Below, piece by piece: positions 1-23,536 of a stretch of DNA of 32,085 nucleotides. The notes under the pieces were generated by a model. It made no database searches, had not been told where the DNA came from, and saw nothing but the letters and a program-made list of their open reading frames with translations. This stretch comes from an uncultured Litorilinea sp. Its GTDB lineage: Bacteria > Chloroflexota > Anaerolineae > Caldilineales > Caldilineaceae. The position numbers and the translations under genes were made by a program. The stretch spans positions 499 through 32,583 of the forward strand of contig CAZYQJ010000001.1 of NCBI GenBank assembly GCA_964649925.1, given 5' to 3'. Position 1 is the first letter of the stretch; each line of letters begins with the position of its first letter.

Positions 1-916
1 CCAGCGAAATCGACTGATGCCCTTCGTCAATTCGAAAGACCGCAATGCTGTCATGCCCGCGGTTGGAGACATAGACGACGCGGCCCGATGGGTGAACGTG
101 GATGTCGGCACACCAACTCTTGTCGCGGAAATCCTCCGGCAGCGCCGAGACCGTTTGGCTTTCGAGCAGCGTCCCTTTTTGCTCATCCACCTCAAAAACC
201 GTCACCGTCGAATCCAGTTCATTGGCGACAAAGGCCAGCCGCCCAGACGGGTGAAATGCCATATGCCGCGGCCCTGCCCCCGATTTGGTGCGCGCCCACG
301 GCTGCTCATGATAGGTCACCAGTTTGTACTGTTCAGCGTCCAGTTCGTAGATCAGCACCTTATCCAACCCCAAGTCCGGCACATAGACAAAACGCCCGCT
401 GGGGTCGAAATTCACCGAATGCGGGTGAGGGGCTTGCTGCCGCTGTGGATGCACGCTGGCCCCTTCATGCTGCACCAGGTCCGCCACCGCGCCGAGCGCA
501 CCGTTCTCCAGGATCGGCAGCACACACACGCTGCCGCTGCCATAGTTCGCCACCAGGAGACAACGCTGGCTCGCATCCACAGCCAGATGGCATGGCGAAA
601 GCCCATGCGTAGATTGCTGGTTGAGAAACTCAAGCGAACCGGTTGTGCGGTCTATCGCAAACGCGCTGACAGCGCCGCTGTTCTTGCCGTCGGCCCCGGT
701 CCCTTCGTTGACACAGTAGAGAAAACGACGGCTGGGATCGATGGTCAGAAAGGATGGGTTGGCAACCCCTAATGTTTTCTCCACCAGCGTCATCGCGCCC
801 GTCGCCATATCAAAGCGGAACAGATAGATCCCCTCTCCTTTGCCGCCGACATGCGTTTCGCGGCGCGTGTACGTGCCGACATAGACAAGCCGCTCGGTTT
901 TCTCAGGATTTGCCAT
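1..916 (-). CDS. Lactonase, 7-bladed beta-propeller family (6-phosphogluconolactonase/YbhE-like); 3' end lies beyond the left edge of the window
   Basis: Absent from the ORF track because no stop lies in the window. My reverse-strand translation from ATG 916-914 reads MANPEKTERLVYVGTYTRRETHVGGKGEGIYLFRFDMATGAMTLVEKTLGVANPSFLTIDPSRRFLYCVNE... and stays open to position 1 (...HPHSVNFDPSGRFVYVPDLG...MAFHPSGRLAFVANE...IHVHPSGRVVYVSNRGHDSIAVFRIDE). The repeated HP-SG-R-hYV-N blades are typical of this lactonase family. Confidence 0.8.
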   Translation of the reverse strand, partial: MANPEKTERLVYVGTYTRRETHVGGKGEGIYLFRFDMATGAMTLVEKTLGVANPSFLTIDPSRRFLYCVNEGTGADGKNSGAVSAFAIDRTTGSLEFLNQQSTHGLSPCHLAVDASQRCLLVANYGSGSVCVLPILENGALGAVADLVQHEGASVHPQRQQAPHPHSVNFDPSGRFVYVPDLGLDKVLIYELDAEQYKLVTYHEQPWARTKSGAGPRHMAFHPSGRLAFVANELDSTVTVFEVDEQKGTLLESQTVSALPEDFRDKSWCADIHVHPSGRVVYVSNRGHDSIAVFRIDEGHQSISL

Positions 917-980
917 CTGTCTCTCCAGTCCAGAAGTTGCGGGCATTACCGCCCAGAGTCATTTTGCGCTTCAGATGCAC

Positions 981-2156
981 CTAGGGTAGCGCCGCGGGCC
1001 AACCAAATCTACCGCTCGCATCCGGCAGCAAGTCAGCTACGGCAATCACGGCATGTAACGGCAGCGCGCCATAGATATGCGGAAATTGCTCCTGGGCCAA
1101 CGGGTCACCGGCAAGCGCCGGTTGCTCGTAACGCAGCGTCGATTCTATTGTGCGAAGGTCAATACACAATACCACCAATTCATCGCCAGGGGTAAAGAAA
1201 GCATTCGCTACATGCAGCATCTGTTGGCGCGTCGAGCAGTGAATAAATCCCTCCGTATCGAGAGACGCGGCCCGATACACCCCAACCGGCAGCGCGGCCA
1301 GCCACTCGCGCAGCGGCGCGATATGGTAGATCGGTTCAGGCGGGCCCGTCATCTCCTCCGGCTGCAGGGCTAGTGCCAGATCATGCCAGAAGGCCGCAGG
1401 GCTGTCTGTAACGTACCAACGCACCCCCATATCTAGAAAACGGCGCAGCGCGGCAGGCGTCACCCGAAAGGGCCGCAGTTGCAGCACCACGCCGGCATCC
1501 TGCAGACGGCGCTGCGTGTGCGCCAAGTACGCGTCGTCCAGCGCATAGACCGGTTCAGACCCTGGCTGCGCCACCTGCACATGAAGCTGTAGCTGGCTGA
1601 TCGGTGGCATACCGGAGGCCAGCCATTGATCAACACGCGCCCGGATCGCTTCTGGCGGCCCGCCCGCCCAGGTCATAGCAGGCGCACCAGGAAAGACCCG
1701 CTGTATCTCGGCCAACATCTCTGCATGGCCGCTGACAAAGATCACCTGGCCGGTCACGCCAAACTCATCCAGCTTGCCGCGCAGCACGCTCAGGTCTACC
1801 GCCTTTGGCTCGACATACAGGCGGCGGCCTGGCTGGCGCGCCATCTCGGTCAGCACGTCGTCAAACATCGGCACGCGCGCCCCGCGAAATGCCGGACTGA
1901 AACGGATGCCCGCATCCACGCGTTGTACCTCGTCCAGCATCCATTCCGCTAGCGGGCGATCCGCGACCGCCGCGGGTACATCCGTCGTGCGCGCCAGCGT
2001 GGCATCATGCACACAGACCAGCGCACCGTCCGCGGTTACACGCACATCCGTTTCCGGGATAGCGCCGGGATAACGCCATGCATGGCGAAAGGCAGGCATG
2101 GTGTTCTCCGGCGCTTCGTCCACAGCCCCACGATGAGCCTGGTAAAAGACGTCCAA
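981..2156 (-). CDS. Fusion protein: glycerophosphodiester phosphodiesterase (GDPD) domain + C-terminal DUF952 domain
   Basis: 391-aa ORF with a TTG start at 2156. The N-terminus carries the GDPD signature (YQAHRGAVDEAPENTMPAF...ETDVRVTADGALVCVHD). The C-terminal ~115 aa (IYHIAPLREW..EGFIHCSTRQQ..LRYEQP..FPHIYGALPLHAV) fit the DUF952 pattern (GFIH-ST, LR-E, FPH-YG-L). Confidence 0.8.
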   Translation of the reverse strand: MDVFYQAHRGAVDEAPENTMPAFRHAWRYPGAIPETDVRVTADGALVCVHDATLARTTDVPAAVADRPLAEWMLDEVQRVDAGIRFSPAFRGARVPMFDDVLTEMARQPGRRLYVEPKAVDLSVLRGKLDEFGVTGQVIFVSGHAEMLAEIQRVFPGAPAMTWAGGPPEAIRARVDQWLASGMPPISQLQLHVQVAQPGSEPVYALDDAYLAHTQRRLQDAGVVLQLRPFRVTPAALRRFLDMGVRWYVTDSPAAFWHDLALALQPEEMTGPPEPIYHIAPLREWLAALPVGVYRAASLDTEGFIHCSTRQQMLHVANAFFTPGDELVVLCIDLRTIESTLRYEQPALAGDPLAQEQFPHIYGALPLHAVIAVADLLPDASGRFGWPAALP

Positions 2157-2186
2157 TGCCGTTACCCCCTGATCTCCAGCCTCATC

Positions 2187-3248
2187 TCAGTTCCACCCGT
2201 TGGCATAGGCAGTTTCATACATCGCCACAATATTCTCCGGCGGGCTGACAGCCTGAATGTTATGGCACGGCGCGAGAATATAGCCGCCACCCTTGCCCAG
2301 CGTTTCCAGGTTTTCCAACACTTCAGCCTCCACCTCCTGTACCGTGCCAAAGGGGAGCGTGTGCTGGTTGTCCATCCCACCGTGCAGAACCACTTGTGAG
2401 CCAAAATCGCGCTTGAGCGCGGCTCGCTCCATCCCCGGTGACCGCCACTGGATCGGGTTCAGCACATCAATCCCTGCGGCGATCATGTCCGGGATGATCT
2501 TGCGGATCGCGCCGTCGCTGTGGAAAAAGACGTACACGCCAGCGCTGTGCGCCAGCTCCATCATGCGCTTCATGCGCGGGATAAAGAACTCACGGATGAC
2601 TGCGGGTGAAAACAACAGGCTCTCCTGCCCGCCAAAATCCTCGGCGACATAGGAGAGGTCGATTCTGCCCGGCAGTTGTTCATAGATGCGCAGCGTATTC
2701 TGGTAGGCGAAGTCAAACAGCTTGTCCAGGCAGTAATGTACCAGTTCAGGCTGCAGCACCAGGTCCATATACGCCTGCTCGCGCCCACGCAGGTCGGCAT
2801 AGATCAGGAACGGTTCAGAACCGCCCCCCTGAATCGGGTACTGCTTGCGGTTGCCACGCACCTGATATGGGATGCCCCGGTAGTCAAACCAGTCCACCGT
2901 GGGCCAGCGGTAGTTCGCCTCAATGTCCGCCACCGTGTCATATTGGGCCAGCGGGGCATTGACACACTCTTTATAGCGCCCTGACCCATAGCTCACCCAC
3001 CGGAAGCGCCTCCCATACATATCCTCAAAACGCGGCAGTTTTGCCCCCACATAGCGCGGCGCAACACTCACCACCTTGTCAATGTGCAGCCGCTCATACA
3101 TCTCCCAGCGGTTGCCCACCCCAAGGTGGCGCATCACTATGTCGGTTGCCTCCGGCGTGCCCCAATAGTCCAGGGGAACCCGGTCCGGTGTGTGCCGCGC
3201 CAGCACTGCCTGCCACCGCTCGCGCGGGGTCATGCTCTCGCGGGCCAT
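2187..3248 (-). CDS. Uroporphyrinogen-decarboxylase (URO-D) family protein, MtaA/CmuA-like corrinoid methyltransferase candidate
   Basis: 353 aa; ATG 3248 is preceded by GAGGTGA. Length and sequence pattern fit a URO-D-type TIM barrel. It starts 9 nt after the stop of a B12-binding protein gene. The position I align to the MtaA H-x-C metal motif reads FFHSDG, and a Cys lies in ILAPCHN near the C-terminus. Confidence 0.7.
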   Translation of the reverse strand: MARESMTPRERWQAVLARHTPDRVPLDYWGTPEATDIVMRHLGVGNRWEMYERLHIDKVVSVAPRYVGAKLPRFEDMYGRRFRWVSYGSGRYKECVNAPLAQYDTVADIEANYRWPTVDWFDYRGIPYQVRGNRKQYPIQGGGSEPFLIYADLRGREQAYMDLVLQPELVHYCLDKLFDFAYQNTLRIYEQLPGRIDLSYVAEDFGGQESLLFSPAVIREFFIPRMKRMMELAHSAGVYVFFHSDGAIRKIIPDMIAAGIDVLNPIQWRSPGMERAALKRDFGSQVVLHGGMDNQHTLPFGTVQEVEAEVLENLETLGKGGGYILAPCHNIQAVSPPENIVAMYETAYANGWN

Positions 3249-3257
3249 GCGCTCACC

Positions 3258-3893
3258 TCACCCGACAATTCCGTTGGCCAGCGTCGCGCACTGGCTGGCA
3301 TCCGGCGCAAACCCGTCCGCGCCGATACGCTGGGCAAATGTCTCGGTGACCGGCGCGCCGCCCACCAGTACCTTGACCCGATCGCGCAGCCCGGCGGCCT
3401 TCAACTGGTCGATCACCACCCCCATATTGGGCATGGTCGTCGTCAGCAGCGCCGACAGGGCGACGATATCAGGCTGTTCGCTCTGAACCGTCTCCACAAA
3501 TCGCTCCGGCGCAACGTTCACCCCCAGGTCGATGATCTCAAAGCCAGCGCCCTCCAGCATCATGCCCACTAGGTTCTTGCCAATGTCGTGCATGTCCCCG
3601 CGCACTGTGCCAATCACCACCTTGCCTTTTGGCTCCACCGCCGCTTCGGCCAGATGCGGTCGCAGAAGCGCCAGCCCAGCCTTCATGGCACGTGCCGACA
3701 CCAGCAGTTCTGGCACAAAATACTCACCCTCTTCAAAGAGAGCCCCCACCTCGCGCATGGCTTCGACCAACCCGTCATCCAGCAGGCTCTTGGCAGACAG
3801 GCCCGCCGCTAATCCGGCCTGGACCGCAGCTTCTGTCTCCGGCGCATTTCCGGCGATGACCGCCTCACGGACTGCATTAACATGCTCACTCAT
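3258..3893 (-). CDS. Corrinoid (cobalamin-binding) protein of a methyltransferase system
   Basis: The ORF track starts at 3965. I prefer ATG 3893 (AAGGAG 8 nt upstream), giving 211 aa. B12-binding motifs present: D-x-H-x-x-G (GDMHDIGKN), S-x-L (SALLTTT), GG (VLVGGAPV). An N-terminal helical cap domain is also present. Confidence 0.85.
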   Translation of the reverse strand: MSEHVNAVREAVIAGNAPETEAAVQAGLAAGLSAKSLLDDGLVEAMREVGALFEEGEYFVPELLVSARAMKAGLALLRPHLAEAAVEPKGKVVIGTVRGDMHDIGKNLVGMMLEGAGFEIIDLGVNVAPERFVETVQSEQPDIVALSALLTTTMPNMGVVIDQLKAAGLRDRVKVLVGGAPVTETFAQRIGADGFAPDASQCATLANGIVG

Positions 3894-3978
3894 TCGTCCA
3901 TCTCCTTTGCTGTCGAGAAATTGCGGGATGGAAACCCATCCCTCACAGGGGATATCCTCTAACACAAACAGGCATGCG

Positions 3979-4848
3979 TCAGCAGCCCGTCAAAAAGCGC
4001 GCGCCCTGCAAGATCCCTAGCTTCTCCGCATCAGGATCACGATGGAAATTGGAATCCTCCAGTTCGATTGACACCGCGCCCGCATAGCCAAACTCAACCA
4101 GCAGCCGCAAGATCTCAACCCAGCGTGCTATGCCATGACCTGGGATCGTGTAGCGCCACGTCATGCCCGAGAACGGCTGCGGCTTGGCGAACGTCGCCGG
4201 TTGCTCAGTGCCATACTCGTACAGGTTTTCCTCCAGGATCATCGTATCCTTGCCATGCACATGATAGACCCGCTCACCAAACTCACGCAGAAAACGCAGG
4301 GGGTCAATCCGCATGCGGATCAGGTGCGACGGGTCATAGTTGATCCCCATCGCAGGCGAAGCCACCTGCTCGAAGAAAGCGCGATAGCCTTCCGGCGTGC
4401 AGCAGAGCGCCCCGGGACCTGGCCAGCCCTCGATTACCAGTTTGGCATTGGCTTCCTCCAGCGTCGGTGCCAGTTCGCCAAAGCTCTCGACCATATAGCC
4501 AAAATTCTCCGCCCGCGGCAGTGCCGGGTCTTCGGGCAGCATCACCAGGAAGTGATTGACCGGCCCCAATGCGGCGCAGGCGCGGATATACTCGGCGTTG
4601 CGCGCCAGGGCTTCGGCGCGCCGCCCGCGGTCCGCTGCAATCATGCCCTTGTTGTCGGGCATGTCCACGCTGCCAATGCGCAGCCCCGCATCCACGACCG
4701 CCCGCCCGGTGACATCGCCATCGGTGCGCAGATCGATCACCTCCAGTTCATTCTCCTTCGCCCAGTTCACCAGGGCATTGAGGTCTTGTTGCCACTCCCC
4801 ACCCCCGCGCCGAAAACCGATGGGGAAACCGCCGGTTCGAGTCTTCAC
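3979..4848 (-). CDS. Sugar phosphate isomerase/epimerase, xylose isomerase-like TIM barrel
   Basis: 289 aa; GTG start with AAGGA 8 nt upstream. Pattern typical of the AP-endonuclease-2/xylose-isomerase-like barrel (..NFGYMVESFG.., ..YHVHGKD.., ..AVSIELED..). Confidence 0.7.
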   Translation of the reverse strand: MKTRTGGFPIGFRRGGGEWQQDLNALVNWAKENELEVIDLRTDGDVTGRAVVDAGLRIGSVDMPDNKGMIAADRGRRAEALARNAEYIRACAALGPVNHFLVMLPEDPALPRAENFGYMVESFGELAPTLEEANAKLVIEGWPGPGALCCTPEGYRAFFEQVASPAMGINYDPSHLIRMRIDPLRFLREFGERVYHVHGKDTMILEENLYEYGTEQPATFAKPQPFSGMTWRYTIPGHGIARWVEILRLLVEFGYAGAVSIELEDSNFHRDPDAEKLGILQGARFLTGC

Positions 4849-4893
4849 AGTCGCAATCCTTTGCTATGGTTGTAGTTCTATGCTTGTGGTGTC

Positions 4894-6459
4894 CTATGGC
4901 TCAATGGCTGGCTGTTCGGCGACGATCTCGCCAACAACCTGTCCCTGCCACTCAGGTGGAATGGGAATCCCCAGCAAGTGTAAGATCGTGGGCGCAACGT
5001 CCGTGATGTGCACAGGCTGTTGAATGATATGGTTCGCGCGCACCCCGGTTCCCCACACAATCCAGGGAATGGTCATGTCCTCGGCTTGCGCTGTGCCATG
5101 ACCGTGGTCATGCCCGCCGTGATCGGCCATGACGATACAGATAGTATCCTCCAGTTCGCCTGCGGCGTCCAGCGACGCGATCACCCTCCCGATGATTGCA
5201 TCGGACTGGGCAACCGCTTGCAGATAGGCGGACGACATCCAGCCGTAGCGATGGCCTGCGGCGTCGGTAGCTTCCAGATAGACAAAGGCAAATGTAGGCC
5301 GCTGGCGCGCGATCTCGCGTGCGGCCACGCCTCCGAGCTCCTCAGCATTGCTGGGTGAAAAACGCCGGTAGACGCTGAGATCGAGCGTGCCGGGCGGAGC
5401 CATATCGCGCAGTTGTTCCCAGGAATAAAAAGCCGCTGTGTCATATCCGCTGTCGTTGATCACCTCGATCAAACTCGGCAGCGGCGGGTCCAGCGGCGTC
5501 CAATCGTTGGTCATGATGCCGTGCTGTTCGGGATGGGCCGAGTAGAAAAGCGACGTATGGCAAGGCAGCGTGATCGAGGGCATGACCGTGCGCGCCTGAC
5601 CTGTCCATGATCCCTGGCGGCGCAGCCGGTCCATCACCGGCGCGTCGGCTGCCTCCAGCGCATCCGGGCGGCAGCCGTCCAGCATAAAGAGGATCACCCG
5701 CTTTGCCACGGGCGGCAGCGACGGGGCCTCCGCCTGCGCTGTCTCGGCGGCATACTCCGCCATCACCTGCAAGAACACATCCCCATGATCCAGGTTGATC
5801 AGGTCGGCCCCCCAGCGCAGCACTTGGCGAAAGGCCGCGGGGTCGTTCTCCGGATGATAGACCATGATCCGCAGGCCGCGCCTCCGGCATTCGTCCACCA
5901 GTGCCGCCGACATATCCTTCAGCCGCACTTCGACCAGGTTCGCCTGGTATTCCTCATCGGCGCGAATGACGTCGGCCACACTCTCCACGTTGATCTTCAA
6001 CGCCAACCTGCTGTCCAGACGCCGGAACTCGCGTGCGTCCGCATCATTGCCAAACCAGAAGAAACAGGCGTCCTGCATCTCCAACGTATGGATGAGGGCG
6101 ATCAACTCCGGCAGATTGGCCGCCTTCACATCTAGAAACACCTTCGCCTGCCCCTTGATCCAGCGCAAGAACGGCTCCAGCCGCGGCACGCGCTCCTGGG
6201 CAAAGTCGGGATGAAACCAGCTTCCGGCGTCCAGCGCGTCGATCTCGCCCGAAGTCAAGTCGCAGAAATTGCCGCGGCCATTCGTCGTCTGTTCCACCGA
6301 AGGCCCGTGCAAGAGGTAATGCACCCCATCACGGCTGAGATTGACATCGACCTCCACATAGTCAACGCCCCACGCGATACACTGCCGCGCTGCCGCATAG
6401 GTATTTTCCGGAGCAACCTTGTTTGCGCCTTTGTGACAGACGATCTCAATTCGACTCAT
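4894..6459 (-). CDS. Fusion protein: GDPD domain + nucleotide pyrophosphatase/phosphodiesterase (NPP, alkaline-phosphatase superfamily) domain
   Basis: 521 aa. N-terminus has GDPD motifs (VCHKGANKVAPENTYAA..YVEVDVNLSRDGVHYLLHG). The C-terminal half has NPP motifs (ILFMLDGCRPD; nucleophile region MPSITLPCHTSLF; metal site MADHGGHDHGHG). The start overlaps the upstream HAD stop as ATGA (6456-6459). Confidence 0.8.
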   Translation of the reverse strand: MSRIEIVCHKGANKVAPENTYAAARQCIAWGVDYVEVDVNLSRDGVHYLLHGPSVEQTTNGRGNFCDLTSGEIDALDAGSWFHPDFAQERVPRLEPFLRWIKGQAKVFLDVKAANLPELIALIHTLEMQDACFFWFGNDADAREFRRLDSRLALKINVESVADVIRADEEYQANLVEVRLKDMSAALVDECRRRGLRIMVYHPENDPAAFRQVLRWGADLINLDHGDVFLQVMAEYAAETAQAEAPSLPPVAKRVILFMLDGCRPDALEAADAPVMDRLRRQGSWTGQARTVMPSITLPCHTSLFYSAHPEQHGIMTNDWTPLDPPLPSLIEVINDSGYDTAAFYSWEQLRDMAPPGTLDLSVYRRFSPSNAEELGGVAAREIARQRPTFAFVYLEATDAAGHRYGWMSSAYLQAVAQSDAIIGRVIASLDAAGELEDTICIVMADHGGHDHGHGTAQAEDMTIPWIVWGTGVRANHIIQQPVHITDVAPTILHLLGIPIPPEWQGQVVGEIVAEQPAIEP

Positions 6460-7004
6460 ATGCGCGCCTGTTCTATTCCTTGTTCAATCATTGGGATAAC
6501 TGACAGAAGTTCCAGCGGCGTTTTGATCCGATAATCAGGCCGCTCCAAGCTGGAGATAGGCACTTTGCGGCGGCGTGGCGACCAGTCGATCCACACGCTG
6601 ACCATGCCCAACGCGTTCGCGCCTGCCACATCACGTTCCAGGTTGTTCCCCACCATGATCGTCCGCCCATAGTCCTGTGGCGCGATGCCCAGCGCATCCA
6701 GCGCATAGCAAAAGATGGCAGGGTCTGGCTTTTCCACGCCCAGCGCGCCGGAGATGGCACGGACGGCAAACCGTTCAAACAGACCGAAATGACCCAACAC
6801 GTTGCGGAAGGTGCCCACTGGGCCATCCGCCACCAACGCCAGCGGGTAGCCTTCAGCCTGCAGCGCGCACACAAGTTCCGCCGCACCGGGGATCAACTCG
6901 GCCACCTGAGTCTCGCCCGCGCTGTTTTTCACCTCCGTCGCCTCATCGACCAACGTATCGCCACTGTCCAGACAGATCGCCAGCAGCCGTCCCCTGGGTT
7001 GCAT
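6456..7004 (-). CDS. HAD-superfamily hydrolase
   Basis: 182 aa with the Rossmannoid HAD pattern (LLAICLDSGDTLVDE; ..LALVADGP..; ..MVGNNLERDVAGANALG). Motif I reads DSGDT, so the Asp+2 position is Gly by my alignment. Confidence 0.75.
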   Translation of the reverse strand: MQPRGRLLAICLDSGDTLVDEATEVKNSAGETQVAELIPGAAELVCALQAEGYPLALVADGPVGTFRNVLGHFGLFERFAVRAISGALGVEKPDPAIFCYALDALGIAPQDYGRTIMVGNNLERDVAGANALGMVSVWIDWSPRRRKVPISSLERPDYRIKTPLELLSVIPMIEQGIEQARI

Positions 7005-7015
7005 AGATGTGCGTC

Positions 7016-8368
7016 CTATCGTAGTGCTGCCGGGCCATCCGGCAGGGGCAGCAGGTCGTCCACGCGTATCAACTTGTTCGTCGCCATAGCGTGGTTGGCC
7101 GCGATCCCCATCATGATCGACGCTGCGCCGTCAATGTGTGAGGCAGCGCGCGCATACGGGTCTGCGGGTGGATTGGGGGAAAGGATCTGCTCCAACATCA
7201 CCGCATCGCCGCCACCATGCCCCCCCTTCGCTTCAGGGATCTCGACCGAGTAGGGTTTGCCAAACATGGGGAAGACGCGGATATACTTACCGCCGAACGC
7301 AGCTTCCGCCTCTTCATCACGGCGCAGCGTTTCCTCTTCCCCAGCTACAAACTGCTTGCCAACCTGCTCTACCAGTTCAATCTCCAGCCGCCCCTTGTCC
7401 CCCGTGATGGCGACCCGGTAGCCTTCCCACGGGCTGTAGGCGATCAGCGAATAGGTGAGCAGCGTGCCGTTGCGATAGCGCGCTGTCAGGCTCATCGTAT
7501 CCTCGACCGTCACATTCTGCCCAAACACGTTGCGGTCGCGCACATACCCGCTGTCTGCCTCAGCCTCCAGATAGAGGGCGCGCAGCACTGGATGCTTGTC
7601 CAAAAAGAGCGCAAACGGATCGTTCGCTGCCTCGGCATGGCCTGTATAGCGCGCGTAGCTGTAGCTTTCACCACGCCGCGCCGCGTTCTCCTCCCCATAA
7701 AAGAACAGATCCCCCATCGCAAAGACCTCTGCTGGATAGGATTGGATCCACCAGTTGATCAAGTCGAAATGGTGCGTTGCCTTGTGCACCAACAGCCCGC
7801 CTGACTTGTCCTTCTCGCGATGCCAGCGGCGGAAATAGTCGGCCCCGTGGTACGTGTCCAGCACCCACTGGAAATTGACGTGCAGCGGCCTGCCCACCAC
7901 CCCCTGCATCAATAACTCACGCACCTTAGTGCTTAACGGTGCATAGCGATAATTGAAGGTCACGCGCAATGATCGGCCCGTCCGCTCAATGGCATCAAAA
8001 ATCGCGCGCGCCTTCTCGTCGTCGATGGTCATCGGCTTTTCGGTGATGGCATCGCACCCCAGTTCCATGGCGCGGATGATGTAGTGGTGGTGGGTGACGT
8101 CCATCGAAGTCACAATCACTACATCTGGGCGGGTCTGTTCCACCATCTGGTCAAACTGGTCAGGGCGATACGTAGGCAGCGGCTCACGCCCGTATTCCTC
8201 GCGCAGTTGGGTGTTGTACCAGGCCATGCGCGTGGGGCTGAGGTCACACAACGCCACCAGTTCATTGTGTTCCGCATACGTTCCGGCAATGGCGTCAACA
8301 TACATCTTCGCACGCCCCCCTGTGCCGACAATCGCATAGCGGCGCTTTCGATCCTCACTATCCATCAT
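7016..8368 (-). CDS. Gfo/Idh/MocA-family NAD(P)-dependent oxidoreductase
   Basis: The ORF track starts at 8428. I prefer ATG 8368 or 8365 (GGGAAGGA just upstream), giving about 450 aa. N-terminal Rossmann motif [14 protein letters not shown], then the typical ..CDAITEKP.. and dimerisation domain. Confidence 0.8.
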
Positions 8369-8409
8369 CCAATCCTTCCCTGTTGGTTGCTTGGTGTGTA
8401 TGGGGAATC

Positions 8410-8430
8410 CAATGGGAACAATCCCCATTG
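8410..8430. promoter_or_regulatory. Perfect inverted repeat CAATGGG-N7-CCCATTG in the divergent control region (candidate operator or 5'-UTR hairpin)
   Basis: Read directly from the sequence: caatggg (8410-8416), aacaatc, cccattg (8424-8430). It lies about 40 nt upstream of the preferred oxidoreductase start. Confidence 0.35.
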
Positions 8431-8496
8431 CATTGGGTAATTTTCCTCACGCTTGCAGCTACACCCTAGGGTAAATCCTCATGGCGCTCCGTTCAA

Positions 8497-8507
8497 AATG
8501 GGAACAA
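8497..8507. promoter_or_regulatory. Second copy of the 11-bp motif AATGGGAACAA (first copy at 8411-8421)
   Basis: Exact 11-mer direct repeat 86 bp apart inside a ~245-bp intergenic region. The first copy overlaps one arm of the inverted repeat. Confidence 0.3.
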
Positions 8508-8613
8508 AGATGGGTCTTCAGCCCGGTGTCGCGGCTCACCATCCATGATATTGTCAACTTAGCACTAACTAGAACCATTGCGTTCTTTAGAGGTACTTAT
8601 AGAGGAGGATACC

Positions 8614-8742
8614 ATGTCACTTACTGAAGTTGGACTCGTCGCGGGCATGCTGATTGCTGTCGGCGTTGTTCGCTTTGGCATCCCGGCGGCCCTCACCTGG
8701 GCCTGCTGCCGGGTGTTACACCGCATCAATCCCGCAGGCTAG
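8614..8742 (+). CDS. 42-aa single-pass membrane protein (not in the ORF track), first gene of the cytochrome module
   Basis: ATG 8614 is preceded by AGAGGAGGA with 4-5 nt spacing; stop TAG at 8740-8742. Translation: MSLTEVGLVAGMLIAVGVVRFGIPAALTWACCRVLHRINPAG. It shares the signature VVRFG(I/V)P..LHR(I/L) with the N-terminus of the ORF at 11795. Confidence 0.6.
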   Translation: MSLTEVGLVAGMLIAVGVVRFGIPAALTWACCRVLHRINPAG

Positions 8743-8780
8743 GCTCACCCCTAGCCTTGTCCCATTCTGGAGATATTCTT

Positions 8781-9644
8781 ATGGTTGCGAACCATGTGCG
8801 CCTTGCACCCTGGGCCGGTCGCATCGCGGCGCTGCTCATCGCCGTCTGCCTCACTGGCTGGAGTTCATCGACCCTGTACGCCCAATCTGCCGCCCCTGCC
8901 CCGTCGGACGCAGTCACTTCCGAGGCGGTCCCTGCAGAGGGTGATGATGTATGCGTCTCCTGCCATGCCGACGAAAGCGCGGCGTGGGAAGCATCGCCCC
9001 ACGGTGACGGAGAAGGCGGCGGCGCATCGTGCGTAGCCTGCCACGGCGAGTATGTTAAAGGCCACCCGGCAGAAGGGCCAATGTCTCTCAAAGTGGACTC
9101 TTCCTCCTGCGAAGGCTGCCATGCCAAAACCTTCGACCAATGGAGCGAGAGCCATCACGCCGCCGAGGGCGTCCAGTGCATTAGCTGTCACAAGCCCCAC
9201 TCCCAGGAATTGCGGCTCACCGACGAGACGCTTTGCGAGAGTTGCCATCGCGAATCTGTCGAGGATCCCTTCCATACGGCCCACTGGGAAGGCGATGTGA
9301 CGTGTACCTCATGCCATCTATCCGACGCCCCGCACACGGGAGCCGTCGCCAGCGGTGATGCAGCGATTGGGTTAGCCATGGCGCCCACTCACGATTTCAC
9401 CACGGTCTCGTCTGCGAAGTGCCTTGACTGCCACCGCGAGGCGGTGACACAGACCACAACAGAGCCAACCACGGTCGCCGCGAGCCTACCCTTGACGACC
9501 ACCGACGCCGCATCATCAGAGCCAACGCCGCTCGCTACGGCCACGCTGTCGGCAGCGAATCTTGGCTTTGGCTTGGGCATCGGCGGCATCCTGGGCATCG
9601 TCTTTATGTTGATCGCCGCCACCTACGGTTTTGGGAAGAAGTAA
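8781..9644 (+). CDS. Heptaheme c-type cytochrome, secreted and C-terminally membrane-anchored
   Basis: Seven CxxCH motifs: CVSCH, CVACH, CEGCH, CISCH, CESCH, CTSCH, CLDCH. N-terminal signal-like segment (RIAALLIAVCLTGWSSSTLYA). Thr/Ser/Pro-rich linker, then a hydrophobic tail LGFGLGIGGILGIVFMLIAATYGFGKK. I prefer ATG 8781 (GGAGA 7 nt upstream) over the TTG at 8757. Confidence 0.9.
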   Translation: MVANHVRLAPWAGRIAALLIAVCLTGWSSSTLYAQSAAPAPSDAVTSEAVPAEGDDVCVSCHADESAAWEASPHGDGEGGGASCVACHGEYVKGHPAEGPMSLKVDSSSCEGCHAKTFDQWSESHHAAEGVQCISCHKPHSQELRLTDETLCESCHRESVEDPFHTAHWEGDVTCTSCHLSDAPHTGAVASGDAAIGLAMAPTHDFTTVSSAKCLDCHREAVTQTTTEPTTVAASLPLTTTDAASSEPTPLATATLSAANLGFGLGIGGILGIVFMLIAATYGFGKK

Positions 9645-9646
9645 TC

Positions 9647-10573
9647 ATGACTGCACCCGATACCTCCCGACGCACATTTTTGAAAGGCCTGGGAGCCGGT
9701 GCGCTGAGTCTGGTCGCCGTCAGCAGCCAGCTCACCCCGGCCCACGCCAGCAGCACCGTCAATACAGATGACGCCTATGGCGTGTTGATCGATCTCACCC
9801 GCTGCACCGGCTGTGATTCCTGCGTGCTGGCCTGTAAGCAGAAGAACAACCGGCCCAACCCAGACACGAGTGCCGACCGTCTCTCTAGCGATGCCTACTC
9901 TGCGCTGGAACGCTACCCGATCATCAACGCCGACGGCGCGCTGGCGGAGCAAGCAGTCAAACGCCAGTGTATGCACTGCCTCCATCCGGCCTGTGTATCC
10001 GCCTGTACCGTGGGTGCGCTGCGCAAACAGCCTAATGGCCCTGTTGTCTACGAAGCGGACAAATGTATCGGCTGTCGCTACTGCCAGTATGCATGCCCTT
10101 TCGGCGTGCCCACCTATGACTGGAACAATGCCCTCGGCCTGATCCACAAGTGTAACCTATGCGCCGACCGCCTGGCAGAAGGCGAACTGCCCGCCTGCGT
10201 AGCTTCATGCCCCAACGGTGCGCTGCGCTTCGGCAAACGCTCAGCCCTGCTGGCTCAGGCCCACGCCCAGATCAAGACCAATCCGGGCCGCTATGTCGAC
10301 CACGTCTACGGCGAAACCGAAGCGGGCGGCACATCTATGCTCTATCTCTCGGCGGTACCCTTCGCACAGCTTGGCTTCCCGGTGCTGGGCAGCAAACCCA
10401 TCCCGCAAGATGCCGAGCGGATCATGGAAAGCACGCCGATCATCGCCTTGGGGATGGCTACGCTTGCCACCTCGCTCTATTTCATCACCCGTCGCCATCG
10501 CGAATTGGCCGCCGAAAACGCCGCGGCTCAGCCCGCAGATCCAGGCGACGCGCACTCGCACCAGTCTGATTGA
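9647..10573 (+). CDS. Tat-exported four-cluster iron-sulfur subunit (NrfC/HybA/PsrB-like) with C-terminal TM helix
   Basis: Twin-arginine signal SRRTFLKGLGAGAL. Four Cys clusters: CTGCDSCVLAC, CMHCLHPACVSAC, CIGCRYCQYACP, CNLC..CVASCP. C-terminal helix IIALGMATLATSLYFI. Starts 2 nt after the cytochrome stop. Confidence 0.9.
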   Translation: MTAPDTSRRTFLKGLGAGALSLVAVSSQLTPAHASSTVNTDDAYGVLIDLTRCTGCDSCVLACKQKNNRPNPDTSADRLSSDAYSALERYPIINADGALAEQAVKRQCMHCLHPACVSACTVGALRKQPNGPVVYEADKCIGCRYCQYACPFGVPTYDWNNALGLIHKCNLCADRLAEGELPACVASCPNGALRFGKRSALLAQAHAQIKTNPGRYVDHVYGETEAGGTSMLYLSAVPFAQLGFPVLGSKPIPQDAERIMESTPIIALGMATLATSLYFITRRHRELAAENAAAQPADPGDAHSHQSD

Positions 10574-10582
10574 GAGGTACGC

Positions 10583-11737
10583 ATGGCTACCCAAGTTACC
10601 TACCGCCGTCCGACGACTTGGCAGTTCCCGATCCCGCCTCTATCCTGGGCTACGTTGGGCATCCTCGGCTTCCTGACCGTCATGGGGATCTTCGCCGGGG
10701 TCGCCCGTCTGCTGGCCGGGCTGGGGATGACCACATCGCTCACCGATCAAATCCCTTGGGGCATCTGGATCGGCTTTGACTTTACGCTCATCGCCCTCTC
10801 CGGTGCAGGCTTCACCATGGCTGCAGTCGGTCATGTCCTGCACCTGCACCGGCTGGAGGCGGCTGTACGCCCGGCCCTATTCGCAGGCTTCTTGGGCTAC
10901 ACAGCCGTCCTTCTGATCCTTGTGCTTGACCTGGGGCGTCCCGACCGCTTCTATCACTTCATCTTGTACTGGAACCTGCACTCGCCCCTGTTCGAAATCT
11001 GCTGGTGCGTGTTGCTTTATACCACAGTGCTAGTGCTTGAAGTCAGCCCGGACCTCTTGCGTTGGCTAGGCTGGGAACGGCTGCGCCGCATCTCGCAAGC
11101 GATCATGCCGGTTGTCTGCATCCTGGGCATCACGCTCTCCACGCTGCACCAGTCCACCCTGGGCACGCTGTACGTCAACATGCCGCACCGGCTCCATCCG
11201 CTGCTGTACACCCCGTTCATGCCCGTGCTGTTCTTCACCACCTCCGTGATGGCAGGCCTAAGCGTCGCCATACTCGCCTACCGGATTTCTGTCCGCATCC
11301 AAAACAAGAATGAAGACCTGGGTGTTGCTTCGGGGCTTGGCGTTGGGATAGCTGGCGTGTCGCTGATCTACCTCCTGATCAAAGGCGGTCTGCTCTGGTG
11401 GGAAGGCAAATTGCCGCTGCTGTTGGTAAATGACGCCGTTACACGCGCCTGGTGGGTCGAAATCACCGTGGGCGCAATGATTCCGCTCATTCTGCTTGCC
11501 ATTCCGAAGTTGCGCCGCCACAACCTCACCTTGTGGGTCGCGCCACTCTTGGTCATTATCGGCGTTGGCATGAATCGCTTCAACGCCACGCTGCAGGGCC
11601 AAACCCCGCCCTGGACGGAGAGTTGGAGCTACACGCCGCACATCCTCGAATGGCTTTCGACCATCGGCATCATCGCAGGGGCCGCCCTTGTCTGGTATCT
11701 TGCCATGCGTTTTCTTGTGCGCCCTGACGAGCATTAG
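10583..11737 (+). CDS. NrfD/PsrC/HybB-family polytopic membrane subunit (quinone-interacting)
   Basis: 384 aa with about 8-10 hydrophobic helices. Family-typical segment DQIPWGIWIGFDFTLIALSGAGF. Located 9 nt after the FeS gene. Confidence 0.85.
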   Translation: MATQVTYRRPTTWQFPIPPLSWATLGILGFLTVMGIFAGVARLLAGLGMTTSLTDQIPWGIWIGFDFTLIALSGAGFTMAAVGHVLHLHRLEAAVRPALFAGFLGYTAVLLILVLDLGRPDRFYHFILYWNLHSPLFEICWCVLLYTTVLVLEVSPDLLRWLGWERLRRISQAIMPVVCILGITLSTLHQSTLGTLYVNMPHRLHPLLYTPFMPVLFFTTSVMAGLSVAILAYRISVRIQNKNEDLGVASGLGVGIAGVSLIYLLIKGGLLWWEGKLPLLLVNDAVTRAWWVEITVGAMIPLILLAIPKLRRHNLTLWVAPLLVIIGVGMNRFNATLQGQTPPWTESWSYTPHILEWLSTIGIIAGAALVWYLAMRFLVRPDEH

Positions 11738-12186: not shown

Positions 12187-12840
12187 TTACCCGTTGAGCA
12201 GCCCGCGCTCAATGGCGTAGCGCACAAGCTCAGCCCGGCTGTGCAGATTCAGCTTCGCCATAATATTTTCCCGATGCCGGTCCACCGTCTTGGGACTAAT
12301 GACCAGCCGTTGTGCAATATCACGGCTGGTCAAGCCTTCTGCGGTCAAAGTCAACACCTCGCGCTCGCGTGCGGAAAGCACATCCTCCTGGCGCGTCGCA
12401 TGGCCGTCGCGCTGCAAAACATCATGCATCAGAAAACGTGCTAATGTCGCGTGCAGAAAGACATTGCCCTGATGGACCACGCGAATCGCGGCCACTAGGT
12501 CGTCTGGTGCAGCCCGCTTGGGGATATAGCCCGAAGCGCCTGCGTCGAGCATTTCAAAGAAATACTGCTCGTCTTCATGCATGGTCAGCGCCAACACCGC
12601 GACGTTTGGGTCGAGTTCCTTGATCTTGCGCGTTGCCTCGATCCCGCTCATGCCCGGCATCGCCACGTCCATGATCACCACGTCCGGGTGGAGCGTCCGC
12701 ACCGCCTCCAACGCCTCCGCGCCGCTCCCAGCCTCCGCGACGATCTCCATATCCGGTTCTGCGGCAAAGAGCATCCGCAGCCCGGCACGCACAATCTGAT
12801 GGTCATCCACCAGCAGCAGGCGGATTTGTTCGCTTGCCAC
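12187..12840 (-). CDS. NarL/LuxR-family two-component response regulator
   Basis: 217 aa. Receiver domain (LLLVDDHQ..DVVIMDVAMPGMSG) plus LuxR-type HTH (LSAREREVLTLTAEGLTSRDIAQRLVISPKTVDRHRENIMAKL). The GTG start at 12840 overlaps the kinase 3' end by 38 nt. Confidence 0.9.
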   Translation of the reverse strand: MASEQIRLLLVDDHQIVRAGLRMLFAAEPDMEIVAEAGSGAEALEAVRTLHPDVVIMDVAMPGMSGIEATRKIKELDPNVAVLALTMHEDEQYFFEMLDAGASGYIPKRAAPDDLVAAIRVVHQGNVFLHATLARFLMHDVLQRDGHATRQEDVLSAREREVLTLTAEGLTSRDIAQRLVISPKTVDRHRENIMAKLNLHSRAELVRYAIERGLLNG

Positions 12841-14467
12841 CGTTTGCCTCCTTTATCCCTCGCGTGCTGGTCAGGATCGGCTGGGCCATGCTGGGACGCA
12901 CAGGCATCCGCACCGTGACATGCGTGCCCCGTCCCGGTTCCGAGCGAATCTGTGACTCGCCACCCAACAACTGGGTACGCTCCCGAATGCCGAGCAACCC
13001 CCAGCCGCCGCCGCGGCCATCCATCACCGCCCCCGCATCAAACCCCACACCGTCATCTGATATATAGATCACCAACTCTTCAGGCGCAATATCCAGACCG
13101 ATCTCAACATTGCGTGCGTCGGCGTGCTTGGCAATATTCGTCAAAGCCTCCTGGACAATGCGGAAGAGTAGCGTTTCATATTCGGGCAATAGCCGGGACA
13201 TCTCGCCCTGCACCTCAAAACGCACCGCGATCTCAGGATGGCGATCCTGAAAGGCGCGAATATACCAGCGCAGTGCCGGAACCAGCCCCAACTCGTCCAG
13301 TTGCGGCGGGCGTAAGTCCTCGATTATGCGACGTAATTCCATCATGGCGTCGTTGGCAAACGTTTGAATCGCATCCAATTGCACAGAGTGGGGCAGCCCC
13401 TGCTCTGCCAGCGCATTTTCCAGCCCACGCAGCCCCAGCCCAATCGCACTTAACGATTGCCCAGTCGCGTCATGTAAATCCCGCGCGATCCGCTGCCGCT
13501 CCGATTCCTGTGCATCGACCACCTGGTAGAGCAGTTCAGCCAACATGCGTTCACGCGTCTGCGCCTCTCGATAGAGCCGCGCGTTCTCGATAGACAACCC
13601 CATTTGTTGGGCGATCCCAGCCAGCAATCGCAGGTCAGCCAATGACAACGGCTGGGTCTCACCCTCCACCCGCGCCAGCACAACCACCCCAACCAGATCC
13701 TGCCGGGCGATGAGCGGGAGCGCAATCGCCACCGTTGGGCTGGCATGTTGCCAACACTCGCGGCCAACCAGCACCGCGTCTAGCTCAAATTCCAGTACCG
13801 CACCGTCCGCATGGCGGCAGAGCGCCCGGCCTTTGCGAAGCGCCCCCAGCCCCAGTTCCCAGTTTGGTCCATAGCGTTCGCCGGGAAGCGCCGCCCCCTG
13901 CAAAGGGAAACCGGTCGCCGCGCCCACCATCGGCGTCGAATCCATCGCCGTCCCCAGCAGCACCAACCCGGCGTCGGCAAACGCCAGGTTCTGCACCACC
14001 TGCCGCAACGCCTGGTCCAAACGACTCGATAGCTCCACCGGCGCAGCCAGCAGATTTGAGAGATCGAGCAGCAGCGCCAGTTCGCGCGCCCGCGCATGTA
14101 GCTCCTGATTCAACCGTTCTGTCTCCTGCAGGCTGCGCCTCTCCACTGCCAGGGCACGTTCCTGGGCCGCCAGTTGTGTCTGCACCGCTTCGTCTAGACG
14201 ACGCTGATTCTCCACGCCAAACGCCTGCAGCGCCCGCACCATAAAAAAGGCCAGCACCGCAGCCATAGTCCCTCGAAACAGTTGCACCGGAATACCAAAC
14301 CATGCCAAAAAGAGCTCACTGTTAATCACCCCGCTCGGCGGGATAGGAGAGGGCTGCACGAAGGCCTGCCCGACTGCCCCATAGAAGAAGAGCGCCGTCG
14401 CCGACCAGACCAGATCGCGGCCAAACTGCGGCATATCCACCTGTCGGTATGTTCGCTGCTGTACCAT
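12803..14467 (-). CDS. Sensor histidine kinase (TM segments, coiled coil, GAF, HisKA_3, HATPase_c)
   Basis: H-box ESERQRIARDLHDATGQSL, ATPase motifs (TNIAKHA..DDGVGFD..GGWGLLGIRER), and a GAF-like middle region. The start is uncertain: TTG 14485 (ORF track), ATG 14467 or ATG 14434. Confidence 0.85.
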   Translation of the reverse strand: MVQQRTYRQVDMPQFGRDLVWSATALFFYGAVGQAFVQPSPIPPSGVINSELFLAWFGIPVQLFRGTMAAVLAFFMVRALQAFGVENQRRLDEAVQTQLAAQERALAVERRSLQETERLNQELHARARELALLLDLSNLLAAPVELSSRLDQALRQVVQNLAFADAGLVLLGTAMDSTPMVGAATGFPLQGAALPGERYGPNWELGLGALRKGRALCRHADGAVLEFELDAVLVGRECWQHASPTVAIALPLIARQDLVGVVVLARVEGETQPLSLADLRLLAGIAQQMGLSIENARLYREAQTRERMLAELLYQVVDAQESERQRIARDLHDATGQSLSAIGLGLRGLENALAEQGLPHSVQLDAIQTFANDAMMELRRIIEDLRPPQLDELGLVPALRWYIRAFQDRHPEIAVRFEVQGEMSRLLPEYETLLFRIVQEALTNIAKHADARNVEIGLDIAPEELVIYISDDGVGFDAGAVMDGRGGGWGLLGIRERTQLLGGESQIRSEPGRGTHVTVRMPVRPSMAQPILTSTRGIKEANGGKRTNPPAAGG

Positions 14468-14509
14468 CAGAGCCCAGCAGCCCAATATCGCCGCCGGGAT
14501 GCCCTACAC

Positions 14510-22555: not shown

Positions 22556-23461
22556 CTACTCAAACCAGATTGGGTTGGTCCAGGCGCGGCCCCCATGCGC
22601 ATCGCGCACCGTGATCCGGCAGTACGGGCTGTTGAATTTCTCCAGGTTCAACTCTACGTCCATCAGACCGTGTCCCTCCGCGGCCACAGACGCCGGCCCC
22701 TTGCCCGTGGCGAAGACCCACTCGGCGGGCGAACAGCGCACAATGGCCCGCTTGCCCGGCTCCACCTGCACATCGTGGATCTGCGGCCCTGTGCTGGAGT
22801 AAAAATGGCCTGCCTTCAGCGCCGCCAGCAGCGCATCCGGTTCCAGCCGTTCGCTCTTGACCCACACCCACCCGCGCGCAAAATCATGACGGCTGCTCTG
22901 GTTGTGAAAATCATCCGCCGCACACACCCAGTAGCGTTGACCACGCCCCAACATAATGTCAGTGATGTGCCAGCTATCGGCGCGGTCATTGTGGTCAATC
23001 GCTACGCCATTATAGACCTCAATGGCGTCCACCGGCCCCAACCCTTCCAGGTCGCGCTCTGTGAGACAGTACCACTGCGGATGCGCTGCGGCCACAAATG
23101 CCCCAGCCGCCCGCGCCCGCGCCGCCAGGCCCGTCCCGTCTTCGCCATCGGCAGGGGGCGCAAAGTCCAGCGGCAGCCCAACGGCCAGCAGATGCCACAT
23201 GCCGCCCAGTTCGGTCTCCCCCGCGTGCAGTTCTGCGCCGATCAGCGTGGTAAAGTGCTGGTTCCGAAAGGAACGGGTATCGACCACAGGATAGTCATAC
23301 CGCTCCAAAAAGTGGTCGGTCAGCGCGAGGAAATCATAGCCGTTGACAGCGTAGCGCCGCGCCACCTCCTCCGGCTCCAGGCTGCCGTCGGATCGCGTCG
23401 AATGGGCGTGCAGGTTGCCGCGCCAAAAGCGGCCCGGCTTATCAAAGGGCAGTTGGTTCAT
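22556..23461 (-). CDS. PHP-domain metal-dependent phosphoesterase (CehA/McbA-like)
   Basis: I prefer ATG 23461, giving 301 aa: [40 protein letters not shown]. These are classic PHP His/Asp motifs. Confidence 0.75.
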
Positions 23462-23536
23462 TTGTCCATTCCTTGCTGGTGTACTGTGCGGCACAGAGAC
23501 CGGCCATGCCGCCGCGTGCATTGATTGTGGATAACA

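Follow-up and report, generated by a model that had tools for sequence, protein, structure and literature searches.

A Corrinoid Protein Paired with an MtaA-Like Member of the Uroporphyrinogen Decarboxylase Superfamily with an Altered Metal Motif in a Compost Chloroflexi Bacterium

A Corrinoid Protein Gene Coupled to a URO-D-Like Gene

The DNA analyzed here is a 32,085-nt stretch, the window, of contig CAZYQJ010000001.1 (assembly GCA_964649925.1) from a Chloroflexi bacterium from compost. Its coordinates 2187–3893 hold exactly two genes, which encode a corrinoid methyl-carrier protein and a protein of the uroporphyrinogen decarboxylase (URO-D) superfamily; the pair belongs with the corrinoid-dependent methyltransferase systems of that superfamily and carries an altered metal motif. 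Every gene from 8428 down to 981 lies on the minus strand, and the features of the pair are as follows.

3258–3893, minus strand: corrinoid methyl-carrier protein of the MtbC/MttC/MtgC type, 211 aa (Pfam, NCBIfam, homologue length, AAGGAG)
3579–3596, minus strand: DMHDIG (D-x-H-x-x-G, aa 100–105), motif of the base-off/His-on cobalamin ligand (regular-expression search of the translation)
3447–3455, minus strand: SAL (S-x-L, aa 147–149)
3357–3362, minus strand: GG (aa 178–179)
3249–3257, minus strand: 9-nt spacer GGTGAGCGC from the corrinoid stop to the URO-D start, Shine–Dalgarno-like
2187–3248, minus strand: URO-D-fold, MtaA-like, methyltransferase-like protein, 353 aa (PF01208, AlphaFold2, Foldseek, profile search of the PDB)
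2631–2645, minus strand: AEDFG (aa 202–206), at a strand end; Asp204 is a candidate active-site or metal residue
2511–2528, minus strand: FFHSDG (aa 241–246), in which His243 and Asp245 stand where MtaA has the His and Cys of H-x-C; located where a barrel strand ends C-terminally
2259–2273, minus strand: APCHN (aa 326–330), in which His329 stands where MtaA has its second zinc Cys, next to the clade-specific Cys328

An earlier, sequence-only reading of this DNA described a B12-binding protein (D-x-H-x-x-G, S-x-L, and GG motifs) whose gene lies 9 nt ahead of that for a single URO-D-family protein, and this arrangement was confirmed at these positions. The corrinoid gene was assigned the ATG at 3893 as its start because AAGGAG precedes it and close homologues are all 211 aa long; a longer ORF with a GTG start (to 3965) was rejected on the same grounds. 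The corrinoid TGA stop (3258–3260) is followed by the spacer and then by the URO-D ATG at 3248, the Shine–Dalgarno-like character of the spacer implying that expression of the two genes is coupled. The corrinoid protein combines a B12-binding_2 cap domain (Pfam, 2.7e-20) with a Rossmann-like B12-binding domain (3.2e-30) that bears the DxHxxG...SxL...GG motifs, which is the architecture of TIGR02370. Its highest-ranking NCBIfam models are those of glycine-betaine, dimethylamine, and "pyl" corrinoid proteins, all below cutoff (225 vs. 370 bits for MtgC_2 and 197.3 vs. 215.3 bits for TIGR02370), and it is best described as a near miss to TIGR02370, sharing the architecture and standing outside any named subfamily.

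Positions 700–8800 of the window recur at 98–100% word identity in metagenomes from manure, compost, invertebrate gut, soil, and anaerobic digesters, and the locus is partly covered, at low depth, by contigs from compost and manure metatranscriptomes. A 298-nt compost RNA contig (3024–3321) crosses the corrinoid/URO-D junction, and two others (2001–2373 and 2161–2316) cross the junction between the URO-D gene and the GDPD-type phosphodiesterase gene downstream. A promoter and terminator scan of 700–8900 was uninformative (one promoter-like site vs. 3.3 expected, and weak terminator-like hairpins only), and an Rfam scan of the window gave zero matches, hence no cobalamin riboswitch.

A complete corrinoid methyl-transfer set consists of a substrate-side methyltransferase (MT I), a corrinoid protein, a methyl-corrinoid:acceptor methyltransferase (MT II), and a reductive activase. 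Of this set the window holds the corrinoid protein and one methyltransferase only: Pfam scans of all its other ORFs of at least 150 aa revealed no MttB/MtaB-type methyltransferase, no Pterin_bind domain, and no RamA/RACo activase, in agreement with the earlier statement that the second methyltransferase and the activase are missing here.

The URO-D-Like Protein Is Most Similar to MtaA

In Pfam, the URO-D-like protein matches PF01208 only (8.5e-21). The NCBIfam models that match it are exclusively of the MtaA/CmuA type (best 9.6e-13), with scores far under the cutoffs for membership (48.1 vs. 235.4 bits for TIGR01463 and 46 vs. 244 for NF004889). Searched as a single sequence against the PDB, the protein has MtaA of Methanosarcina mazei (4AY7) as its best match (8.5e-6), and a profile of 102 relatives matches MtaA at 1e-14 and HemE at 1.2e-5. 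The AlphaFold2 model, derived from the alignment of these relatives, is a TIM barrel of very high confidence (predicted local distance difference test score 97.5, predicted template modeling [TM] score 0.93), for which Foldseek ranks MtaA first (4AY7/4AY8; TM score 0.69–0.72, 20% identity), followed by HemE (~0.65) and MetE; by Pfam, model, and Foldseek alike, the protein has the URO-D-type TIM-barrel fold of the MtaA/CmuA family. Its N-terminus, R11...D22-R23-x-P25 (R-x10-DRxP), aligns with that of MtaA, and by these comparisons of sequence and fold MtaA is its nearest solved relative.

The Pfam family name and the public "uroporphyrinogen decarboxylase" annotations would make the protein a true HemE of heme/chlorophyll synthesis, with which it does share the fold and a His at position 329. 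We nevertheless reject this identity as scarcely credible: no hemE model appears among its NCBIfam matches at E ≤ 1e-3, at which the MtaA-type models do match; the profile match to HemE is far weaker than that to MtaA; neither an RQAGR-type substrate motif nor the carboxylate-binding N-terminal motif of HemE is present; HemE has Phe-Thr-Lys where this family has an invariant H-x-[C/D]; and the gene is coupled to a corrinoid gene. The separation from HemE on which the sequence-only reading depended is thus upheld.

Core (folate-independent) methionine synthases of the MesA–MesD type are small TIM-barrel zinc enzymes of the same clan as URO-D. This identity was likewise rejected, since those enzymes belong to PF01717 (the MetE catalytic domain) and the window protein matches PF01208 only; its H, D, and H/C also differ from their H-C-E/D-C zinc ligands (H-x-C/H...E/D...C), and it has no demonstrated homocysteine-binding residues. 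The MesA–MesD enzymes take methyl groups from methylcobalamin or corrinoid proteins and tolerate ligand substitutions, and MesB occurs in Chloroflexi (PMC7857596, PMC7005905).

An Altered Metal Motif Characterizes a Very Large Clade

Both HMMER alignments (single-sequence and profile) place FFHSDG opposite LHICGN of MtaA, so that H-x-C is replaced by H243-S-D245, and place APCHNI, ungapped, opposite APGCGI, so that His329 occupies the position of the second zinc Cys. The register at His329 is secure because the flanking A-P, I, P, and E-N match without gaps. In MtaA chain numbering, His246, Cys248, and Cys325 (Cys spacing 77), which we take to be the ligands of the H-x-C-x(n)-C zinc motif, correspond to His243, Asp245, and His329. 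The canonical MtaA/CmuA motif is hence not intact, and the H-S-D that had been read by eye is correct. The Cys of APCHN, by contrast, had been taken for a retained ligand and is not one: Cys328 pairs with an MtaA glycine one residue before the MtaA Cys, is clade-specific, and co-varies with the replacement of Cys245 by Asp.

Among 16 orthologues from several phyla, His243, Asp245, Cys328, His329, Glu203, and Asp204 are all invariant. In a wider set of 118 full-length representatives at 31–55% identity, neither His243 (118/118) nor Asp204 varies, and Gln267 hardly does. Of these sequences, 88 carry Cys and 30 carry Asp at position 245, and position 329 holds His (97 sequences), Gln (13), or Asn (7). 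The residue at position 328 is one of Ser, Thr, Cys, and Ala, and that at position 203 is acidic (Asp or Glu). Cys328-His329 accompanies H-x-D in 17 of 30 sequences and H-x-C in 6 of 88 (Fisher p = 4e-8, a value that ignores kinship), the H-x-D sequences being mostly the nearest relatives of the window protein, and sequences with Cys245 carry Ser/Thr/Ala328-His329. It looks as if the thiolate ligand had been relocated in the orthologous group from position 245 to position 328, at a neighboring strand end, which would make the group a small, testable case of metal-site remodeling within one fold. The altered motif is not peculiar to this locus: H-[ST]-D-G also occurs in paralogues at other loci, and the alignments indicate that the motif is a trait of a huge clade and not a local oddity.

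In the AlphaFold2 model, the conserved motifs all lie at the C-terminal ends of the barrel strands, the active-site side of a TIM barrel; the clustering of His243, Asp245, and His329 was deduced from this location together with their homology to the three MtaA zinc-ligand positions. The site of the clade would thus keep a His, one Cys, a second His, and a carboxylate, for metal binding or for acid–base chemistry. A non-thiol substrate, which the sequence-only reading had proposed from the altered ligands, is plausible; it does not follow from the ligands alone, because the site still offers His, Asp, and Cys/His and because both Asp/Cys/His and His-for-Cys zinc sites are associated with thiol-alkylating enzymes. 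Protein farnesyltransferase, which alkylates thiols, has an Asp/Cys/His zinc site. The MesC core methionine synthases have a His-for-Cys zinc ligand and a predicted thiol-alkylating function (PMC7857596).

A word-indexed search returned 7,341 proteins related to the URO-D-like protein, the top 120 of which are full length, 65–90% identical, and named at most "uroporphyrinogen decarboxylase (family/-like)." An exhaustive search of representatives clustered at 50% identity yielded 843 clusters with E ≤ 1e-30, a number that rises to 4,794 with E ≤ 1e-10. GTDB species genomes contain 501 loci with a relative, the best 80 of which belong to Chloroflexota (Anaerolineae, Caldilineae, Thermoflexales, Dehalococcoidia), Poribacteria, Latescibacterota, KSB1, Zipacnadia, Armatimonadota, Planctomycetota, Spirochaetota, Aminicenantes, Acidobacteriota, and Bacillota; the closest among these 80 is from Chloroflexi bacterium CFX7 (89%). 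A search of the full-text literature found no paper on this clade, which is a very large, uncharacterized branch of the uroporphyrinogen decarboxylase superfamily.

Recurrence of the Pair and Other Corrinoid Associations

We surveyed the neighbors of 84 non-redundant orthologue loci (loci outside the window are identified below by L numbers) by all-versus-all ORF clustering and by Pfam assignment of first and second neighbors, discarding the top neighbor clusters, which were frame-shadow ORFs inside the conserved gene. Within 10 kb of the orthologue, a homologue of the window's corrinoid protein was detected directly upstream in the window, L010, L011, and L015 and 5.6 kb away in L049, and nowhere else in the survey. 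In a neighbor-joining tree, the window protein forms one clade with those of L010, L011, L090, L091, and L092, in all of which the corrinoid gene is directly upstream of the URO-D gene (spacing 9–24 nt in L090–L092). The two genes are also adjacent in L093, where the URO-D gene is called short, so that the pair recurs in seven loci besides the window (L010, L011, L015, and L090–L093). L015 belongs to another branch of Anaerolineae, and its pair, 17 nt apart, is a lone unit in a housekeeping context, between RtcA, MBL-fold, and PSP1 genes.

Other components of corrinoid systems adjoin orthologues elsewhere. In L007, a Latescibacterota contig, a RACo activase gene overlaps the start of the orthologue. 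In L049 (Planctomycetota; L049:8674–18892), only an AraC/PocR regulator separates the orthologue from what is apparently a complete corrinoid demethylase operon, comprising DUF5981/MTHFR-like, Pterin_bind methyltransferase, amidohydrolase, corrinoid, 400-aa URO-D-like, and RACo genes. A RACo gene lies 9 kb from the orthologue in L056, and DUF1638, which is common in corrinoid methyltransferase clusters, occurs near the orthologues in L001 and L069. By a rough estimate, chance alone would place a corrinoid-system gene directly beside the orthologue, on the same strand, at ~0.5% of loci; the three independent events in ~80 loci are well above this.

Across the survey, the commonest real neighbors are PurO-like (11 loci) and FucI-like (7 loci) genes, URO-D paralogues, ABC sugar permeases, and GH4. 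The most frequent of these, a PurO-like IMP-cyclohydrolase gene (PF07826, ~190 aa), lies ~20–90 nt downstream of the orthologue on the same strand in 11 Anaerolineae loci (L021, L022, L036, L048, L052, L057, L060, L063, L066, L080, and L083), and no explanation ties it to methyl transfer. L001:10001–18318, on a 14.3-Mb Caldilineaceae contig, contains the orthologue, two URO-D-like genes, GH4, DUF1638, PEPCK, a fourth URO-D-like gene, and a malic enzyme gene, and no corrinoid protein is encoded within 10 kb of the orthologue there.

The corrinoid protein has relatives of its own in other settings. In L094:1006–18037 (a Thermoflexales metagenome-assembled genome) and L095:1–16642 (a sludge Chloroflexi contig), a corrinoid protein 60–63% identical to that of the window is encoded together with three divergent URO-D-like genes in a hexuronate-utilization locus (LacI, Opp-type ABC transporter, UxaC, UxaE, short-chain dehydrogenase/reductase, LarA-like, 6PGD, PfkB, GDSL esterase, and amidohydrolase); neither a pterin methyltransferase nor an activase is present in the 16–20 kb read. 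These are candidate loci for demethylation of O-methyl-uronates, for example, 4-O-methyl-glucuronate.

Comparison with Characterized Corrinoid Systems

The closest characterized counterparts are the MT II enzymes MtaA and MtbA (4AY7/4AY8; TIGR01463), which provide the best match in sequence and fold, and share the URO-D TIM barrel, the N-terminal R...DRxP, and the first zinc-ligand His. They work with an MtaC/MtbC-type corrinoid protein, as the window protein may do with the product of the corrinoid gene 9 nt upstream. They differ from the window protein in sequence (~20% identity), in having H-x-C for its H-S-D, and in having the second zinc Cys for its His329 (plus Cys328). Coenzyme M is an unlikely acceptor because the host is a compost Chloroflexi bacterium.

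MT I enzymes of the same superfamily (OdmB, VdmB, MtvB, MtoB, CdmB) act on ethers and haloalkanes, with zinc sites that vary or are absent (PMC13222342). The window pair resembles these systems in superfamily and in the adjacent corrinoid gene, and the substrates of these enzymes are non-thiol methyl donors. Their gene sets usually comprise MT I, the corrinoid protein, and MT II, sometimes with an activase, whereas within the window the corrinoid gene is the only partner; moreover, CdmB (9RUI), the one member compared, matches the profile only over residues 280–349 (the last ~70; E 1.6e-4) and not over the full length.

The Type 1 mlp clusters, which are widespread and have no assigned substrate, also combine UroD-superfamily homologues with a corrinoid protein and lack a tetrahydrofolate methyltransferase (Kountz and Balskus, PMC10418091). 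They encode two or three Mlps that branch with SCMTs, together with a Ram/RACE activase, and their hosts are strict anaerobes, for the most part Firmicutes, whereas the window, from Chloroflexota, has one distant UroD homologue with H-x-D and no activase.

Genes Flanking the Pair

Three genes in the same-strand run around the pair bear on its context:

981–2156, minus strand: GDPD phosphodiesterase fused to DUF952, downstream (Pfam)
3979–4848, minus strand: xylose-isomerase-like TIM-barrel gene, upstream, 85 nt from the corrinoid gene (Pfam)
7016–8428, minus strand: GFO/IDH/MocA oxidoreductase, head of the same-strand gene run; association uncertain (Pfam, NCBIfam)

The order GFO, xylose-isomerase-like TIM, corrinoid, URO-D is kept in the clade of the window, and the best solved relatives of the GFO protein are glycoside and glucuronide 3-dehydrogenases. 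We did not adopt a functional tie to these genes: synteny in the lineage extends over more than 20 kb (including UvrD-like, class-V aminotransferase, TauE, and NAD synthase genes and, in L090/L092, also SerB-like phosphatase and aldo-keto reductase genes), the gap between the TIM and corrinoid genes is 190–290 nt in relatives versus 85 nt in the window, and GFO-family neighbors occur at ~12% of orthologue loci, as expected from copy number (a rough estimate).

The GDPD-DUF952 gene, which starts 30 nt past the URO-D gene and is kept only in L010, is probably co-transcribed with it. Relatives have sulfatase and lactonase genes, not GDPD-DUF952, downstream of the URO-D gene. A second unusual GDPD fusion, to an alkaline-phosphatase-superfamily (Phosphodiest/Sulfatase) domain, lies at 4894–6459, so that two such fusions flank the pair, and a HAD hydrolase gene (6456–7004) overlaps it by 4 nt.

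A Probable Methyl-Transfer Module and Its Alternatives

Building on the observed domains, motifs, tight coupling, MtaA homology, and transcription of the pair, we consider it on balance probable that the pair is a genuine corrinoid-dependent methyl-transfer module whose second methyltransferase and activase are encoded elsewhere in the genome, because the contexts in L015, L007, and L049 are independent, because adjacency exceeds chance, and because the locus is transcribed. The sequence-only reading had supposed that the missing partners are encoded elsewhere or are unnecessary; the former is the most likely, and the latter less so, given the orthologues beside a RACo gene (L007) or a full operon (L049). 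In such a module, the 211-aa carrier would bind cobalamin base-off/His-on and carry the methyl group on cobalt, alternating between the Co(I) and CH3-Co(III) states. Docked on this carrier, the 353-aa TIM-barrel protein would pass the methyl group from cobalt to a small molecule, or in the reverse direction, with the small molecule held at the barrel mouth by a metal or acid–base site (His243, Asp245, Cys328/His329, and Asp204), which we infer to bind a metal, and a methyl-corrinoid:acceptor enzyme and an ATP-dependent reductive activase would be supplied from elsewhere in the genome.

We hypothesize that, within this module, the URO-D-like protein would be the substrate-side MT I, stripping the methyl group from an O-methyl ether. 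Candidate donors are methylated sugars, uronates, and cyclitols and lignin-type methoxy compounds, all of them abundant in compost. To this direction and this class of substrate together we give somewhat less than an even chance, and a carbohydrate donor specifically seems rather unlikely; an O-methyl ether is slightly favored over the alternatives. The hypothesis draws on a ligand set harder than Cys2His, on the precedent of UroD-superfamily MT I enzymes whose zinc sites vary or are absent (PMC13222342), on the pterin-type MT II already next door in L049, on habitats (compost, manure, digesters) rich in methoxylated plant polymers, and on the hexuronate loci L094 and L095. Several findings weigh against the module or against this direction of transfer. 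Some 90% of the 84 orthologue loci lack corrinoid, RACo, and pterin-methyltransferase genes within 10 kb, there is no neighbor family conserved across them, and many orthologues lie amid housekeeping genes (rpoB/C, a tRNA synthetase, the PurO-like gene). The URO-D partners in L094 and L095 are only remotely related to the window protein, and the link to carbohydrates partly rests on the GFO/xylose-isomerase-like gene order, which is indistinguishable from lineage-wide synteny. The junction-spanning RNA contigs are consistent with co-transcription, yet they are shallow and could include DNA carry-over, and the metal site is a predicted one. Finally, the nearest characterized relative, MtaA, is an MT II and not an MT I.

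This last point leads to the principal rival, in which the URO-D-like protein is itself an MT II that passes the methyl group from the carrier to a common acceptor, probably a thiol (homocysteine, in a role like that of the core methionine synthases, or another cellular or sulfur compound), the absent enzyme then being the substrate-side MT I. We regard this as possible, if unlikely. The genes mtaA and mtbA are likewise unlinked in Methanosarcina, and the pattern of orthologues that are 62–70% identical between Chloroflexota, Poribacteria, Latescibacterota, Armatimonadota, and Planctomycetota and mostly unlinked to corrinoid genes fits a general MT II of this kind at least as well as it fits an MT I. 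The site also keeps one Cys, with Cys328 appearing where Cys245 is lost. There are, moreover, precedents: some core methionine synthases that depend on methylcobalamin have variant zinc ligands, and one such enzyme occurs in Chloroflexi (PMC7857596, PMC7005905), and for the mlp clusters without a tetrahydrofolate methyltransferase the proposed substrates are methyl-sulfur or methyl-selenium compounds (PMC10418091). Against an MT II stand the absence of the canonical Cys2His thiol-activating site, the match to PF01208 and not to the MetE catalytic family PF01717, the pterin-binding MT II beside the L049 orthologue, given which there is less need for a second MT II at that locus, and the fact that no thiol-metabolism neighbors were seen. 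Very unlikely, in our view, is a B12-independent enzyme (a decarboxylase or other TIM-barrel enzyme acting on a sugar acid) that adjoins by accident a corrinoid protein serving some other methyltransferase. Such an enzyme would account for the many orthologue loci without a corrinoid gene and for a His329 shared with HemE; given the synteny of the whole block across the clade, the adjacency could be inherited, and orphan corrinoid proteins do exist (L096). It would not account for the separate pairing in L015, the RACo overlap in L007, or the nearness of corrinoid-system genes in L049, L056, L001, and L069, nor does it sit well with the 9-nt coupling, the RNA contig across the junction, the absence of the HemE N-terminal motif, and H-x-[C/D] positions that are MtaA-like and not HemE-like. 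Taken with the confirmed observations, these comparisons leave the interpretation in the sequence-only reading partly supported.

Extended from the window to the whole H-x-D...C-H clade, the MT I hypothesis would make its members corrinoid-dependent demethylases of carbohydrate and cyclitol methyl ethers in saccharolytic phyla (Chloroflexota, Armatimonadota, Poribacteria, Latescibacterota, and Planctomycetota), with targets such as 4-O-methyl-glucuronate from xylan and O-methyl hexoses. We think this broader proposal quite unlikely to hold in full; a search of the full-text literature found no corrinoid methyltransferase tied to O-methyl sugars. If true, the clade would match the P450 sugar demethylases in function without depending on oxygen, and the proposal would account for the many "uroporphyrinogen decarboxylase" paralogues in these genomes.

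Thousands of genes named "uroporphyrinogen decarboxylase" in uncultured polymer-degrading phyla are members of this uncharacterized clade, and the present locus is among the few in which such a gene is physically coupled to a likely partner, a corrinoid protein. The pair is consequently a tractable entry to the biochemistry of the clade, consisting of two small soluble proteins with a clear spectroscopic assay. Demethylation of O-methyl sugars or lignin-type ethers by the clade, if it occurs, would open a B12-dependent path for the carbon of methyl ethers in compost, sludge, sponges, and sediments and would link these organisms' need for B12 to polymer degradation; if the clade is instead a general methyl-corrinoid:acceptor enzyme, it would be a new MT II outside the methanogens.

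Other Genes of the Window

Upstream of the minus-strand run, 8757–11737 (plus strand) encodes a multiheme cytochrome c with several CxxCH motifs, a 4Fe-4S dicluster protein, and an NrfD-like membrane protein, resembling alternative complex III or polysulfide reductase, and is adjoined at 12187–14485 (minus strand) by a GAF histidine kinase/LuxR response-regulator pair. The cytochrome/NrfD and two-component module is an insertion in the window relative to the synteny of L090–L093. A 724-aa protein (26852–29026, plus strand) has zero Pfam matches at 1e-4; its L093 homologue has a faint UvrD-helicase signal, and in seven other Chloroflexi loci homologues lie within 3 kb of the URO-D orthologue, beside a UvrD-type helicase. 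The 724-aa protein is possibly a partner of the AddB/RecB type, and its nearness to the URO-D gene probably reflects synteny, not function. Zero Pfam matches were also obtained for a 321-aa ORF (22556–23521, minus strand) and for a 359-aa protein (29188–30267, plus strand) whose N-terminus is signal-like and which also has a long linker rich in Pro and Thr and a hydrophobic segment at the C-terminus. The other families assigned by Pfam are SerB-like phosphatase, aldo-keto reductase, APH-like kinase, 2-hydroxyacid dehydrogenase, NAD synthase, D-Ser-dehydratase-like, M19 dipeptidase, TauE, class-V aminotransferase, ScpA, and amidase.

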